Below, in pieces: positions 53,305 through 61,217 of a DNA stretch of 64,000 bases; position 1 is the first letter of the stretch, and every line of letters starts with the position of its first letter. This DNA comes from Gammaproteobacteria bacterium (lineage in GTDB: Bacteria; Pseudomonadota; Gammaproteobacteria; GCA-001735895): the NCBI GenBank assembly GCA_050298595.1, contig JBNKUM010000008.1:139017-203016 (forward strand), in the 5' to 3' direction. The notes beneath the pieces were generated by a model. It ran no database searches. It saw nothing but the letters and a program-made list of their open reading frames with translations, and was not told where the DNA came from. The translations under genes and the position numbers were made by a program.

Positions 53305-55317
53305 TTGGGTATAATAGTTTTGACCGAATCAACAAAACCTGACTCCTCTGGTAAAATTCATTTTGCTTTCTGGTCTCTATTATTTAGCCTATTACAGATT
53401 GCGCTAAAATTTTCAAATCAGGGAGAGAACCTTTTTTCCATTCAGGTAATTCAACAATTATTTGAATGGCTAAGTCCTTCTCCAGCACTACGTTCACATA
53501 TCTATATATACGCAATTACATTTGTGAGTATATATACCACCTTCTATCTTCTTGCTTTTTTTATATATCGAAGATTCACTCTTTTTTATCCCGGATTTTT
53601 AAAAGCCCCTGGCATTATCCTATTCCACCTATGGGTATTTTTAGTAATCAATTTCATCAATTACTATATTTTTCCAGACTCTATTATTTCCTGGGTTTTC
53701 GAGCCTATATATGCTAACCCAACAAGTTACGTAACTTTTTCACTACTCACTGCAGCACTATTAATCATCTCAATATTTTCCATTTTAGATTTAATCATTA
53801 CTCAACTGAAAAAAAGGCAGTCTAGAAATATTGCAATCGTAACCAGCTCATCGATATTTATCATACTAAGCTCTATATATTTTATAAATAACAGTCATTC
53901 AAATAGTCGATTACTGCATGACAAACCTAATATTATTCTCATAGGTATAGATTCGCTACGCCCAGATATTATTGACCAAAATTTAACTCCAACCCTTAAT
54001 AATTTTTCTTCTAATGCTTTATATTTTGCCAATGCCTATACAACTCTAGGCCGAACGTTCCCTGCCTGGATGAGCATTCTTACAGGCAAATACCCAGTTC
54101 ATCACAGCGCAAGATTTAATCTTACTCACATCAATAATGATATTTTATTAAACTCTCTGGCATATGATTTAAAAAAAAATGGTTATACGACTTTTTACGC
54201 GAGTGATGAAAAACGCTTTTCAAATATTGATCATTCTTTTGGATTTGATTATTTAGGAGGGCCGGAATCAGGGTTAAACGATTTCATAATTAGTAGTGTT
54301 TCAGATATTCCTCTAATTAATTTTATAAGAGAAACCCCTCTTGGTCATTATCTTTTACCTCACAGCTACGACAACCGCGCTATTGATACTATTTACAATC
54401 CAGAAAATTTTGATAAGACACTCAACAATCAACTTAAAGAATTACCAGATACTCCCGCATTCATTTCTGTACATTTTTGTCTTCCTCACTGGCCGTATAA
54501 TTGGTCCGGTAGTAGAGATTATAAGATGATTGAACCATCTACACATCAAAAGGGAATGCCACAAAACTATTTAAAAGCCGTTAATCGGGCCGATGATCAA
54601 TTTAAGGTCTTTTTGAATCAACTGGCAGAAAACGATTTTCTGAAAAATGCGATCGTCTTTATATTCTCTGATCACGGTGAAGGCTTTGCCAAAGGTGAAA
54701 GAATTATTAATTATTCTAGTGAAGGCGATGAGTTCATTTCTGGTAACCAAATAGGGCATGGGGGAAGCCTGGATAATCCTGATGACTCCAGAATACTTTT
54801 AATGCTAAGAAGATATGGGGAAAATAAAACAATACCCTCTCTTTTGACTCAACCAGCATCGTTAATCGATATTCGACCTACAATTCTTGACCTCTTGAGT
54901 ATTAAAACCGAAGATGAAATTGACGGGGTATCATTGATCAAATTGAACAAAAAGGAACGTCTCAAAAGACCTCTATACTTTGAAACAGGGATCAGAATAC
55001 CTATACCCTCATCAGGAAAAATTGATAAAGTTAAAATCCTTAATTCAAATCTTCATTCTTACGATATCAGTCCAAACGATAGCAAACTTATACTAAAGGA
55101 AAGCATACTTCCCGGACTCATAAGACACAAAGAGCGCGCAGTGTTATATGGAACTGACTACCTCATCCAGAAATATAAATCAAATGATAACGGTAAAACT
55201 ATTGATTATTTTTTCTTAACCAACCACAAATATGCCGATAGCACAGATCTTAAAAAGTCCTTATGTAATCATTTTTCGAGAGATATAGACTTTTATGGAA
55301 ATGCCTGTAATCAATAG
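53305..55317 (+). CDS. membrane-anchored alkaline-phosphatase/sulfatase-superfamily transferase (EptA/PptA/LtaS-like); start codon uncertain (no in-frame ATG for 255 codons)
   Basis: About 200 aa of polytopic membrane N-terminus, then a sulfatase-like domain with IGIDSLRPD, TGKYP, HxxPHWPY and the metal-ligand motif SDHGEGF. The reading frame opens directly after a TGA with a TTG. Confidence 0.65.
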   Translation: MGIIVLTESTKPDSSGKIHFAFWSLLFSLLQIALKFSNQGENLFSIQVIQQLFEWLSPSPALRSHIYIYAITFVSIYTTFYLLAFFIYRRFTLFYPGFLKAPGIILFHLWVFLVINFINYYIFPDSIISWVFEPIYANPTSYVTFSLLTAALLIISIFSILDLIITQLKKRQSRNIAIVTSSSIFIILSSIYFINNSHSNSRLLHDKPNIILIGIDSLRPDIIDQNLTPTLNNFSSNALYFANAYTTLGRTFPAWMSILTGKYPVHHSARFNLTHINNDILLNSLAYDLKKNGYTTFYASDEKRFSNIDHSFGFDYLGGPESGLNDFIISSVSDIPLINFIRETPLGHYLLPHSYDNRAIDTIYNPENFDKTLNNQLKELPDTPAFISVHFCLPHWPYNWSGSRDYKMIEPSTHQKGMPQNYLKAVNRADDQFKVFLNQLAENDFLKNAIVFIFSDHGEGFAKGERIINYSSEGDEFISGNQIGHGGSLDNPDDSRILLMLRRYGENKTIPSLLTQPASLIDIRPTILDLLSIKTEDEIDGVSLIKLNKKERLKRPLYFETGIRIPIPSSGKIDKVKILNSNLHSYDISPNDSKLILKESILPGLIRHKERAVLYGTDYLIQKYKSNDNGKTIDYFFLTNHKYADSTDLKKSLCNHFSRDIDFYGNACNQ

Positions 55318-55356
55318 CCGTCTAAAATCTCCCAACACATAAATTCGAGAGGAAAA

Positions 55357-59652: not shown

Positions 59653-59801
59653 GCTAGTGAAAGCCTCACAATATATTCATCTAAGTAAAAATCCAGCAAT
59701 ATCAACTATGAAGAACACATGTATTCAGTGCGTATAAAAACTCTTCAGATATTGCTTTTTACATCTCAAAATCGTGTAATAAACGGGTAGAATAATAACC
59801 T

Positions 59802-61217
59802 ATGGAGCTGTGCAAAATAAGGAGCATATACAGGGCGTTACTCCCTTTTCTTATTGTGATAATATGGATATCAGGAAGATGGACCGAAACCTACCAGATA
59901 ACTACTTTCTATATTGAGCTTATTATAGTAACTGCCTATATATCCTCTCTTCCTATTAATCAGACAGTACTATCAATGATACAAAATCATAAGATAGTAT
60001 TTTTCCTTCTTCTTGCATTTTTTATCTTTTATATAAAGATCGTTCTGTACCTTAAGACTGAAATTCTTTTATATACTTTATTATTGGTCTACGGACTGTT
60101 TTTTGTAAACTTTCAACCCAGAATTAAATCACTTCGCTCAGCCTTCTTTGTTTTTTTTATATTATCCATATCAATATCATTTTTCTTTTCACCACTTGAG
60201 TCATCTGGTCGGTACTATTCTCAATTTAGATTTGAACAGACGATACTACACGCAATAGTTTTTTTGGTGCTAGTCAAGGAGTTTCAAAGAAAAGCCTTGG
60301 ACCCAAATATACTTCTCTCAACACTTATAATATCCCTCTTATTTATTTTCATTGAGTACACTTTCTATTATGTAACAGCAACCACAACACCCTCAGGTAC
60401 GCAATGGTGGAGATACCCGCCTTGTTGTTTTTATCACACTCGACATTTTGGATACCTTGGTACAGCAGCAGCTGCAGTACTCCTCGGATTTATCTGTTCA
60501 CTGAAAGCAACTTTCTCAAGACAGGCTACACCACTATGGATATTGCTAACGATTACTCTGGCTGCTTTGATATGGTCTGGTGGAAGAGCTGCCACAGGCT
60601 CGATCATATTGACTATGATCACTCTACTAATCCTGGCATTTTTCACCGGCTCTAAAACACAGATAAAATCAATTACTATCGGTTTTTTAGGATCATTCCT
60701 GCTGGCTATCCTAATTAGTGAGCAGCTTATTGTTTTCCCCTGGAATGGAATAATGTCCATGATAGGAAGAACATCTACTGCTGACAACCTTAATGCCATA
60801 TCAAGTAATCGATTATTTGTCTGGAAAGAAGCACTGCAAGCCTGGTGGCAATCCCCCATTTTGGGCCTTGGAAGTGATGCCTATGCTTATATACCCAAAC
60901 AAAACTCATGGCTGACCCAACCTCACAGCATGATTATACAATTTCTTCTGGAATGGGGTTTGTTCGGCATTATATTTTTGGTCATGATATATACAACGTT
61001 TATTAAAAGCGTAATCACGTATAGATCAAATGACCTTGCTAATATCCCAGCACCAGTACTAGCTGCAGCTAGTACAATTTTTGCACTTGCTATACATGGA
61101 ATTGTGGATGGCACCTGGTATTACCCTCAACCAGTATTTACTCAAATCTTATGCCTATCGATATTAATAGGGTCATTAAGTACAAGCTTACCGAATAATC
61201 AGAATAATATAATTTGA
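59802..61217 (+). CDS. second Wzy_C/O-antigen-ligase-like paralog (about 55-60% identical to the 55357 protein over the N-terminal 120 aa)
   Basis: MELCKIRSIYRALLPFLIVIIWISGRWTETYQITTFYIELIIVTAYIS aligns with MELYKFRNIYTALLATLIVIMWITGRWTEIHQITTFYIELIIVTVYIS. Both share PPCCFYH and the C-terminal LGLGS-AFAYIP-QPHSMI-QFLLE block. Confidence 0.7.
   Translation: MELCKIRSIYRALLPFLIVIIWISGRWTETYQITTFYIELIIVTAYISSLPINQTVLSMIQNHKIVFFLLLAFFIFYIKIVLYLKTEILLYTLLLVYGLFFVNFQPRIKSLRSAFFVFFILSISISFFFSPLESSGRYYSQFRFEQTILHAIVFLVLVKEFQRKALDPNILLSTLIISLLFIFIEYTFYYVTATTTPSGTQWWRYPPCCFYHTRHFGYLGTAAAAVLLGFICSLKATFSRQATPLWILLTITLAALIWSGGRAATGSIILTMITLLILAFFTGSKTQIKSITIGFLGSFLLAILISEQLIVFPWNGIMSMIGRTSTADNLNAISSNRLFVWKEALQAWWQSPILGLGSDAYAYIPKQNSWLTQPHSMIIQFLLEWGLFGIIFLVMIYTTFIKSVITYRSNDLANIPAPVLAAASTIFALAIHGIVDGTWYYPQPVFTQILCLSILIGSLSTSLPNNQNNII

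Follow-up and report, generated by a model that had tools for sequence, protein, structure and literature searches.

To our knowledge, the enzymes known to act as pilin accessory proteins form a short list (TfpO, TfpW, TfpM, PglL and PptA/B), almost all of which come from a few pathogens. In Pseudomonas aeruginosa and other species, a pilin-accessory cassette consists of the pilin gene, a terminator and one or several accessory genes (PMC11841053). We analyzed a stretch of 64,000 nucleotides, here called the window, from a Gammaproteobacteria bacterium (contig JBNKUM010000008.1 of assembly GCA_050298595.1), in which pilA and pilB are separated by an island of four genes. These encode two proteins with a Sulfatase domain (Sulf1 and Sulf2), alternating with two proteins with a Wzy_C domain (WzyC1 and WzyC2). 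Judged from the sequences and their gene neighborhoods, we rate the island as a pilin accessory cassette that would combine a putative new enzyme family with a new combination of parts.

The most similar described loci are the group I pilA-tfpO/pilO cassette of P. aeruginosa and the pilA-tfpO cassette of Acinetobacter, in which, like in the window, the accessory gene or genes directly follow pilA and a terminator is placed between them (PMC11841053). The TfpO cassettes also resemble the window in that they contain a membrane protein of the Wzy_C superfamily and a pilin that ends with Ser after the C-terminal disulfide loop, and in that they look foreign to their surroundings. However, they contain a single accessory gene and the ligase comes first, while the window contains four genes, the first of which encodes a sulfatase-like enzyme. 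They also differ in that the Wzy_C proteins of the window appear to belong to a separate clade without PglL_A, and in that the C-terminal Ser is not conserved among the pilins located beside the relatives of these proteins.

In Geobacter sulfurreducens, Tyr32 of PilA carries glycerophosphate, but the enzyme is not named in that report (PMC6201914). The short pilin, PilA-C-like protein and ABC transporter of the Geobacter PilA-N/PilA-C type are shared with two of the loci described below (L041 and L065), whereas the pilin in the window is of full length. The same concept as the one considered here, a pilin that carries both an O-glycan and a phospho-form, is found in Neisseria with PglL and PptA/PptB; in the window as there, the enzyme for the phospho-form would be membrane-anchored, belong to the alkaline-phosphatase superfamily and have a Thr nucleophile. 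Phosphoethanolamine, phosphocholine and phosphoglycerol have been found on PilE in Neisseria. Since the Neisseria pilin and Geobacter PilA do so, pilins can carry phosphoethanolamine, phosphocholine or glycerophosphate.

Proteins of the LtaS, OpgB and YejM type consist of an N-terminal polytopic domain followed by an extracytoplasmic catalytic domain, and both Sulf1 and Sulf2 have this architecture. However, the sequence similarity between the window proteins and LtaS, LtaP, OpgB, GacH and YejM is marginal. The acceptors of LtaS, LtaP, OpgB and GacH are lipoteichoic acid, glucans and cell-wall polysaccharide rather than proteins, and YejM is a regulator and not a transferase. The best sequence-profile and fold matches of both catalytic domains are to S1 sulfatases and phosphonate monoester hydrolases, but the matched structures are soluble, while Sulf1 and Sulf2 are membrane-anchored and lack the C/S-x-P-x-R motif.

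Organization and composition of the island

The presence of four polytopic membrane proteins between pilA and pilB, in the order Sulfatase, Wzy_C, Sulfatase, Wzy_C, had been proposed in a sequence-only reading of the window and was borne out by the open reading frames (ORFs), Pfam domains, hydropathy profiles and AlphaFold2 (AF2) models (Table 1). The hydropathy profiles, with which the AF2 models agree, contain four to five N-terminal hydrophobic segments in Sulf1 and Sulf2 and at least nine in each of the Wzy_C proteins, and all four are thus polytopic. In Pfam, the Sulfatase domain (PF00884) was identified in Sulf1 and Sulf2, and the Wzy_C domain (PF04932) in WzyC1 and WzyC2, as had been anticipated, while PglL_A was absent.

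The island had further been described as two tandem modules that arose by duplication of a gene pair. The domain order agrees with tandem modules, but the gene pairs do not, since Sulf1 and Sulf2 show an identity of only 18% (BLASTP, E 0.011). The proposed duplication of the pair must be given up, as only the Wzy_C gene is duplicated, with 60% identity over 469 amino acids between WzyC1 and WzyC2 (BLASTP), and Sulf1 and Sulf2 come from different families. Thus, the ligase gene appears to have been duplicated and the second sulfatase-like gene to have been recruited from another family. The earlier estimate of 8.8 kb for the block matches the whole pilA-to-pilB interval, which is 8.9 kb, but not the four genes, which span only 7.9 kb.

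Consistent with the earlier description of an AT-rich block, the GC content is 35.7% at positions 53236-62109 and 44.6% in the remaining window. The GC content at third codon positions (GC3) is also low, 0.285-0.335 for the four island genes as compared to 0.40-0.48 for metH, carB, ftsH, aceE, pilS and pilR. Because GC is low at synonymous sites, the AT-richness is not explained by the amino acid composition of membrane proteins. The suggested horizontal acquisition fits with the low GC3 and with the finding that L150, a close relative (see below), has another insertion sequence (IS) remnant at this junction. The IS200 relic reported at the edge of the island was also recovered. It matches positions 2-61 of the 121 positions in the Y1_Tnp profile and scores 36.4 bits against transpos_IS200 in NCBIfam, below the cut-off of 55; no full-length Y1_Tnp domain that reached the family cut-off was found in 61494-61838 with Pfam or NCBIfam.

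Upstream of pilA, the conserved flank is formed by pilS and pilR, the two-component regulators of pilA. The sigma-54-type site 5' of pilA, TGGCAC-N5-CTGCT, fits the presence of the gene for PilR, a sigma-54 activator, directly upstream; it matches the consensus and is thus a putative promoter. The hairpin with a T run between pilA and Sulf1 is the strongest of nine terminator-like sites identified in a scan, and its location gives the window the layout of a pilin accessory cassette. In the mature part of PilA, 26% of the residues are Ser or Thr, and the protein ends with ...YVPAECRS, that is, with a C-terminal Ser. Taken together, the promoter, the terminator, the ...CRS end of the pilin, the recurrence of Sulf1 beside pilin genes and the Wzy_C relatives in those loci suggest that the island is very probably a pilin modification cassette, as the sequence-only reading had it. 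None of the four proteins matched the PADLOC defence models.

Sulf1 recurs next to pilin genes

The Sulf1 family comprises 404 matches in a word-indexed search, and 418 relatives were found among the GTDB species representatives. The gene neighborhoods were surveyed for the best 80 of these 418 relatives, and Sulf1 and Wzy_C genes were labelled in these loci with hidden Markov models (HMMs) built from alignments made in this analysis. Of the 80 loci, 22 have a type IV pilin gene within 300 nt of Sulf1 and 27 have one within 5 kb, with ORFs called simply and pilins labelled by an N-terminal G-F-T-L-I-E motif, which divergent pilins escape. When GTDB loci, contig look-ups and the window were combined, there were 21 non-redundant loci in which a pilin gene is located directly upstream of Sulf1 and on the same strand, and a hairpin with a T run comparable to the one in the window was present at at least 12 of these 21 junctions. 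As a rough background, no pilin-like ORFs were found in 53 loci retrieved for the Sulf2 family. The pilin-adjacent Sulf1 genes are spread over Methylococcales, Porticoccaceae, Chromatiales, Steroidobacteraceae, Desulfobulbaceae and other groups, and a functional link between Sulf1 and the pilin is the most economical reading of this recurrent, co-oriented position in unrelated lineages. A full-text literature search revealed no paper, within the collection searched, on a sulfatase-fold accessory gene at pilin loci, in line with the earlier remark that such a pairing had not been described.

The genes that come with the pilin gene and Sulf1 vary (UbiA and HAD with a FAD oxidase, GT2, or an LPG_synthase_TM protein), Sulf1 being what these pilin loci have in common. 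In L043, L060 and L073, no gene other than Sulf1 separates pilA from pilB. Of three Sulf1 homologs that were looked up individually, two adjoin pilin genes and the third is placed between two acyl-CoA dehydrogenase genes. In the Porticoccus locus, pilB has the opposite orientation, and pilA is followed by Sulf1, a gene for a polytopic protein of 530 amino acids, and then by WbqC and GT2 genes.

Relatives of the Wzy_C proteins in the window were present in ten of the 80 loci (L017, L021, L031, L040, L041, L056, L065, L071, L088 and L090), nine of which also contain a pilin gene, all of these loci having been collected through Sulf1. They are located beside both Sulf1 and a pilin gene in L011, L021, L031, L040, L056, L088 and L090. 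In L011, a metagenome-assembled genome (MAG), the order pilA, Sulf1, Wzy_C is kept at low identity to the window (41% for the Sulf1 homolog and 32% for the Wzy_C protein P0146). The triple of pilA, Sulf1 and Wzy_C is also present in Methylomicrobium lacus, Methylomonas rivi, Zooshikella sp. and Steroidobacteraceae-type MAGs; in M. lacus, the order is pilin, FimW_N protein, Sulf1 and a divergent Wzy_C.

Some pilin loci contain two sulfatase-like genes. In L040 and L090, a pilin gene is followed by two Sulf1 genes, and the other strand encodes a Wzy_C protein; in L067 and L095, the pilin gene adjoins two divergent Sulf1 genes. In two MAGs of the Cellvibrionales/Porticoccaceae, pilA and Sulf1 are followed by a gene for a distinct membrane-anchored protein with a Sulfatase domain (L045:9742-11619 and L057:9761-11626), which has about 620 amino acids, seven hydrophobic segments and a PF00884 match with an E-value of 4e-36. 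Because L045 and L057 also have them, two sulfatase-like genes per pilin locus are not unique to the window.

Short pilins of the Geobacter type, with 60-73 amino acids, and the small proteins encoded after them were found in the regions L041:1531-2161, in a MAG of the Desulfobulbaceae, and L065:3500-4095 and 4342-4833, in a MAG of the Pseudomonadales. In both, the order is short pilin, a small PilA-C-like protein with a Sec signal and a Gly/Ser-rich C-terminal tail, ABC transporter, Sulf1 and Wzy_C. The split pilin of L065 is located in the Pseudomonadales, outside the Desulfuromonadales, where such pilins are usually discussed. In L017, a PilR-like activator gene directly precedes Sulf1 and Wzy_C, and a short pilin gene (14487-14774) is located 4.6 kb away. 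In two Porticoccus-type loci (L034:9508-12260 and L082:3387-6109), pilA and Sulf1 are followed by genes for a HAD and UbiA prenyltransferase-like protein and a FAD_binding_4 oxidase. This set resembles the decaprenyl-phosphate-arabinose (D-arabinofuranose) pathway for the arabinan on the group IV pilin in P. aeruginosa.

We inferred a neighbor-joining tree of the Sulf1 family, which is a quick distance tree with unreliable deep nodes. The members without a pilin context fell into one large clade, which includes Coxiellaceae MAGs and two Legionella species and in which many members are located after a gene for a protein of 800-860 amino acids (an acyl-CoA dehydrogenase in L009). The members with a pilin or Wzy_C context were placed on deep, separate branches, and Sulf1 from the window grouped with L011 and L017.

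In many of the pilins encoded beside Sulf1, the last Cys is followed by a short tail with Ser at its end, such as ...GGSGGS, ...GGAGGGS, ...TTGGS, ...GFGGGS, ...NAAS and ...CRS in the window, while others end with ...C-[RK]-x; these endings are given as an observation rather than a statistic. Among the Sulf1-adjacent pilins, the presence of a C-terminal Ser was not correlated with the presence of a WzyC gene. In the L094 locus (L094:6991-9866, from a MAG), pilA is encoded on the same strand as pilBCD, the interval from pilA to pilR holds one divergent Sulf1 gene only, and Wzy_C is absent. Its pilin ends with ...CRA and is 71% identical to PilA from the window, which ends with ...CRS and is accompanied by WzyC, a contrast that amounts to a single anecdote.

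Active site and fold of Sulf1

In an alignment of 30 diverse members of the Sulf1 family, D216, S217, T251, P253, W255, H390, H395, D456 and H457 were invariant. When Sulf1 is aligned with HMMER to an S1 sulfatase of solved structure, T251 coincides with the residue that becomes formylglycine, and T-F-P-A-W, in which T251, P253 and W255 are the invariant residues, stands in place of the formylglycine motif C/S-x-P-x-R. Sulf1 lacks this motif and is therefore unable to make formylglycine. A Thr nucleophile is typical of members of the alkaline-phosphatase superfamily that transfer phosphoryl groups, such as NPP, LtaS and EptA, and Sulf1 combines a Thr at the nucleophile position with a metal-type site (D216, D456, H457) in a periplasmic domain of the alkaline-phosphatase fold. 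The lack of the formylglycine motif, also from Sulf2 (see below), suggests that neither protein is a true sulfatase. No residues in the catalytic domain were found that separate the pilin-linked from the non-linked Sulf1 proteins.

The AF2 model of Sulf1 (predicted local distance difference test score, pLDDT, of 85) consists of a helical membrane domain at residues 14-195 approximately, an alpha/beta catalytic domain with the sulfatase fold and a small C-terminal beta domain. In a fold comparison, its neighbors were S1 sulfatases (values of up to 29.4), the periplasmic domain of YejM (28.7), LtaP (27.3) and LtaS (25.3), followed by EptC (24.1), EptA (20.9), MCR-1 (20.6), BcsG (20.0) and GacH (16.6), and a search with Foldseek gave a similar picture. 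The sequence-only reading had related the sulfatase-like proteins to PptA and EptA. However, an EptA-type N-terminal domain (EptA_B_N in Pfam) was not matched at E <= 0.01 in Sulf1 or Sulf2, and EptA, MCR and EptC are not their closest relatives in sequence or fold; by these features, neither protein belongs to the PptA/EptA family. The scores against NCBIfam models were 34 and 31 bits for LtaS (cut-off 970) and 39 bits for YejM (cut-off 825), and no NCBIfam cut-off was reached by Sulf1 or Sulf2. By analogy with LtaS, OpgB and EptA, the active site and architecture of Sulf1 suggest that it transfers a phosphoryl-linked group supplied by a lipid, and we consider Sulf1 a candidate pilin-associated phosphoryl-group transferase.

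Features of the Wzy_C proteins

Both WzyC1 and WzyC2 are polytopic membrane proteins with a Wzy_C domain, a feature of TfpO, PilO and PglL, and they are encoded by the second and fourth genes after pilA. The earlier note had proposed an oligosaccharyltransferase of the canonical TfpO/PglL kind, which was contradicted by the finding that Wzy_C was their only Pfam domain and that the scores of the two proteins against TfpM in NCBIfam, 35 and 26 bits, were far below the cut-off of 600. An exhaustive search yielded 178 representatives of their clade at E <= 1e-30 and 1127 at E <= 1e-10. Wzy_C and no other Pfam domain was found in 100 of 101 clade members, and the most common NCBIfam match was to TfpM, a pilin-specific O-oligosaccharyltransferase, in 15 of the 101 and always far below the cut-off. 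The proteins thus appear to form a clade separate from canonical PglL/TfpO. All relatives carry the generic database name “O-antigen ligase family protein”.

R337 and H375 are invariant in the clade, and R143, R214 and R262 are nearly so. Arg and His residues are catalytic in WaaL and PglL, and the invariant residues are consistent with an active ligase. In an alignment of six Wzy_C sequences that includes WzyC2, this protein keeps all of the invariant residues. WzyC1 is therefore regarded as a candidate pilin O-oligosaccharyltransferase. A scan of genome contigs with the single protein WzyC1 gave no relatives, and a second contig scan was made with the Sulf1 family alignment. The gene for one Wzy_C relative, P0147, is located back-to-back with that for a third kind of membrane-anchored Sulfatase-domain protein (the L151 type). 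The clade is thus repeatedly paired with membrane-anchored Sulfatase-domain proteins of three lineages, those of Sulf1, Sulf2 and the L151 type.

Sulf2 belongs to a different family

A profile-profile comparison detected homology between Sulf1 and Sulf2 only in the catalytic domain (17% identity at a probability of 99.9%) and not across the membrane domains. The Sulf2 family is rare, with 16 matches. Its motifs are V-E279-S-L-R-P, Q-S-S-H-S-S-Y-A-D, in which a Ser occupies the position of the nucleophile, N-L-Q-N-S-H, and G-D534-T-G. The P and R of the formylglycine motif (C/S-x-P-x-R) are absent from Sulf2, which has S-S-Y-A-D instead. The AF2 model of Sulf2 (pLDDT of 77) contains helices at residues 3-189 and then an alpha/beta domain, and its best match in Foldseek was full-length PbgA/YejM (6xlp); VP1736, phosphonate monoester hydrolases and LtaS came next.

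No pilin gene was found near members of the Sulf2 family in 53 metagenome loci or in two contigs that were looked up, and the 53 loci contained no Wzy_C gene either. The neighbors of the family are weakly enriched for membrane glycosyltransferases of the GT-C type (PMT_2 in 6 of 93, GT87 in 5 of 93), and a homolog with 32% identity follows carbamoyltransferase and GDSL-like genes. The 3' end of the Sulf2 gene contains a run of seven C at 59086-59092, in the codons of a Tyr-Pro-Pro stretch that is conserved in the family. Such C tracts cause phase variation in Neisseria pptA, but here the codons for Pro-Pro may be enough to account for it.

The island in a close relative

The second half of the island was also found in a close relative, L150, in which the C-terminus of Sulf2 is 98.8%, WzyC2 90.6% and PilB 93.5% identical to the window. 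Between Sulf2 and WzyC2, the spacer measures 481 nt in L150 and 674 nt in the window, and about 340 nt of the latter are replaced in L150 by about 230 nt of another sequence. The spacer of the window contains a 17-nt tandem repeat at 59615-59648. The possibility that this spacer is a decayed copy of Sulf1, which would have meant a true duplication of the pair, was rejected, as searches with blastn, tblastx and HMMs gave no match to Sulf1 or its 3' end.

At the junction of WzyC2 and pilB, where the window has the IS200 relic, L150 contains a different insert of 1.5-1.7 kb (L150:2499-4052). One frame of this insert reads ...FCKSFRGLAAIVKQELEHHPFNRALFTFTNRQ... and looks like a fragment of orf2 from the IS66 family. 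This junction is an insertion hot spot, and both genes of the second pair have been maintained.

Proposed function and alternative explanations

The reading that we consider probable, if only just, is that the island, in what is an uncultivated bacterium, is a horizontally exchanged pilin-accessory cassette, in which a Wzy_C glycan ligase is combined with a lipid-dependent transferase that places a phosphoryl group on the pilin or on its glycan. The data show which genes and domain families are present, that the catalytic-type residues are conserved, how the proteins are arranged in the membrane, and that the order of pilin, Sulf1 and in part WzyC recurs in many genomes, whereas the acceptor (pilin or glycan), the donor, the substituent and the division of labor between the two pairs are inferred. 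In such a cassette, pilA would be transcribed from the PilR/sigma-54-type promoter, and the strong terminator would allow only a fraction of the transcripts to pass into the four genes, of which those for Sulf1 and Sulf2 have weak TTG starts. The products would be four inner-membrane enzymes that act at the periplasmic face on the prepilin or pilin waiting in the inner membrane. WzyC1, and WzyC2 with another preference for donor or site, would move a lipid-linked glycan to Ser or Thr residues of the pilin, for which the C-terminal Ser134 is the most obvious choice. With Thr251 and the metal site (D216, D456, H457), Sulf1 would accept the phosphoryl-linked head group of a membrane lipid, form a covalent phospho-threonine intermediate, and pass the group, for example phosphoglycerol or phosphoethanolamine, to the pilin or the pilin glycan by chemistry of the LtaS/OpgB/EptA type. 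In some genomes pilA is accompanied by Sulf1 alone, which favors direct action on the pilin, or a dependence on a general glycan pathway.

The role of Sulf2 is the weakest part of this model. It would have been recruited later, from a family whose usual role lies elsewhere, and may add a second substituent, serve WzyC2 or, similar to YejM, be non-catalytic. The dual modification of the pilin that was suggested earlier is therefore worded as a proposal, since Sulf2 has no independent link to pilins. More tentatively, the Sulf1 family could represent a widespread class of membrane-anchored accessory enzymes for pilins, undescribed so far, that have a sulfatase fold and a Thr nucleophile and move a phosphoryl-linked group of a lipid donor onto type IV pilins, or onto the PilA-C-like proteins that accompany short pilins, in many cases at a C-terminal tail rich in Gly and Ser; we regard this extension as possible rather than probable. 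The transferred group could be phosphoglycerol, phosphoethanolamine, or even a sugar-1-phosphate from a polyprenyl-phosphate-sugar, in which case the reaction would be a bacterial protein phosphoglycosylation.

Several observations weigh against the reading as a pilin cassette with a ligase and a transferase. About half of the Sulf1 family is without a pilin link, and because these members are found in non-pilin contexts, the family as such is not specific for pilins. The association of WzyC with pilins is not an independent sample, as the loci were collected through Sulf1. The PglL_A and Wzy_C_2 domains, which are accessory domains present in PglL and PilO, were not found in the Wzy_C proteins of the window with Pfam. 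The pilins beside WzyC relatives end variably, with S, G, Q, A or D or at CR. According to the rule for TfpO, established in work on Pseudomonas 1244 and Acinetobacter, the cognate pilin supplies a C-terminal Ser as acceptor, and since the C-terminal residue is not conserved, this rule fails across the family. True S1 sulfatases and phosphonate monoester hydrolases are the nearest neighbors of the Sulf1 catalytic domain, making a hydrolytic role possible. The Sulf2 family is without the His of the usual D-H metal pair (D534-T), and the subclade of the window is also without the E-H that the family conserves a few positions later. Finally, the closest homolog of Sulf2 (60% identity) is encoded between nadE and glnB, with no pilin gene nearby.

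Some of these observations would also fit the insertion of general genes for envelope modification, acting on lipopolysaccharide (LPS), lipid A, O-antigen or periplasmic glucans, into a recombination hot spot, with WaaL/Wzy-like ligases and EptB/OpgB/LtaS-like transferases as the products. Such an origin agrees with the AT-richness at synonymous sites and the IS remnants that differ between close relatives, with the generic name of the Wzy_C relatives, with the genomic contexts of the Sulf2 family, including its GT-C-type neighbors, and with the half of the Sulf1 family that is placed in non-pilin contexts. However, the order of pilin and Sulf1 recurs in many unrelated genera, on the same strand and often with a terminator, and chance insertion poorly explains the several loci in which Sulf1 is the sole gene between pilA and pilB. 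Moreover, no LPS core or O-antigen genes adjoin the island within the window. We consider an unselective landing of envelope genes unlikely.

A second alternative concerns the sulfatase-like proteins only, which could be hydrolases that trim or take off a group, bound by a phosphodiester or as a sulfate, from the pilin, the glycan or the lipid carrier, or catalytically silent partners, similar to YejM/PbgA or TfpY, that stabilize the pilin or the Wzy_C ligase. The closest neighbors of both proteins in sequence and fold are S1 sulfatases and phosphonate monoester hydrolases, and Sulf2, which lacks the His of the D-H pair, has PbgA/YejM as its best full-length structural match. There is also a precedent in that pilin accessory proteins of the TfpY type aid assembly without modifying the pilin (PMC11841053). 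These arguments are countered by the full set of nucleophile and metal-ligand-type residues in Sulf1, which is invariant across 30 diverse members, and by the absence of C/S-x-P-x-R from both proteins, which makes sulfatase activity unlikely. A polytopic anchor fused to the catalytic domain is, in addition, a hallmark of lipid-donor enzymes such as LtaS, EptA and OpgB. On balance, it seems distinctly unlikely that neither protein is a transferase.

That only Sulf1 and WzyC1 serve the pilin, while Sulf2 and WzyC2 are a separately acquired module with another target, or are decaying, is improbable: Sulf2 is without a pilin link elsewhere, the variable non-coding spacer of 674 nt breaks the operon-like layout and the IS relic adjoins WzyC2, but both genes are intact and have been kept in L150 (98.8% identity for the C-terminus of Sulf2 and 90.6% for WzyC2, with 93.5% for PilB), WzyC2 has every invariant residue of the six-sequence alignment, and two sulfatase-like genes also occur in other pilin loci (two Sulf1 genes in L040, L090, L067 and L095; Sulf1 and another in L045 and L057).

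Implications of a probable pilin accessory cassette

Modifications of pilins alter phage susceptibility, immune recognition, aggregation and surface behavior. If it functions as suggested, the Sulf1 family would add a testable type of pilin-modification enzyme, with an active site like that of a phosphotransferase, to those already described. The pilA-Sulf1 arrangement is also present in cultivable carriers, namely Allochromatium humboldtianum DSM 21881 (L049), Spectribacter acetivorans P385 (L053), Povalibacter uvarum DSM 26723 (L067), M. rivi WSC-6 (L056), M. lacus (L021) and Zooshikella sp. RANM57 (L031). On the wider and more tentative reading of the family, it would also supply a candidate for the enzyme that adds glycerophosphate to pilins of the Geobacter type, and would account for many of the unannotated genes beside pilA in Proteobacteria. 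The window may further illustrate how such cassettes are built, with a core of Sulf1 and Wzy_C that was extended by duplication of the ligase gene and by recruitment of a sulfatase-like gene from another family, at a site where IS remnants accumulate.

Feature coordinates and other genes in the window

The coordinates of the features in the pilA-pilB region are summarized in Table 1. The same locus was identified on contigs of three MAG assemblies (GCA_050298135.1, GCA_050291185.1 and GCA_050292295.1) and of one Logan assembly. On the source contig, pilB is followed on the 3' side by pilC, pilD, coaE and zapD, and sucCD, dksA and other genes are located 5' of pilS.

Table 1. Features of the pilA-pilB region, with positions given in the window.
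Feature	Position	Strand	Evidence
pilS	49688-51268	+	Pfam 6TM_PilS, HisKA, HATPase_c; GC3 0.476
pilR	51278-52603	+	Pfam Response_reg, Sigma54_activat, HTH_8; GC3 0.484
Sigma-54-type promoter-like site, TGGCAC-N5-CTGCT	52737-52752	+	Read from sequence, 5' of pilA
pilA, type IVa major pilin, 134 aa	52831-53235	+	Pfam N_methyl 4e-11, Pilin 6e-11; GC3 0.348
Intrinsic terminator-like hairpin and T run	53266-53302	+	Stem 53266-53295, 13 pairs, loop of 4
Sulf1, 670 aa, TTG start	53305-55317	+	PF00884 Sulfatase 9e-27, also DUF229, Phosphodiest
WzyC1, 473 aa, O-antigen-ligase superfamily	55357-56778	+	PF04932 Wzy_C 4.7e-16
Sulf2, 708 aa, TTG start	57001-59127	+	PF00884 Sulfatase 2e-24
Non-coding spacer Sulf2-WzyC2, 674 nt	59128-59801		No ORF of at least 80 aa
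WzyC2, 471 aa	59802-61217	+	PF04932 Wzy_C 2.5e-13
Truncated IS200/IS605-type Y1 transposase relic	61494-61838	-	Pfam Y1_Tnp 1.5e-6
pilB, assembly ATPase, downstream conserved flank	62110-63822	+	Pfam T2SSE 3e-152, MshEN

The only tRNA gene found in the window encodes tRNA-Leu (anticodon GAG) and is located at positions 1-85 on the reverse strand, and therefore no tRNA gene adjoins the pilin island. An ORF of 684-685 amino acids at 23742-25799 on the reverse strand has no Pfam domain and the lowest GC3 of the window (0.24); it adjoins a DUF748 (AsmA-like) gene and is possibly foreign. It was considered as a “housekeeping” paralog of Sulf1 beside a gene for a protein of 800-860 amino acids, but this was rejected, as it has no similarity to Sulf1 and the neighboring protein of 815 amino acids belongs to DUF748 and is not an acyl-CoA dehydrogenase. 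At 12109-13659 on the reverse strand, the window encodes a protein of 516 amino acids with a eukaryotic-type Ser/Thr kinase domain (Pkinase, 5e-45) in its C-terminal half.

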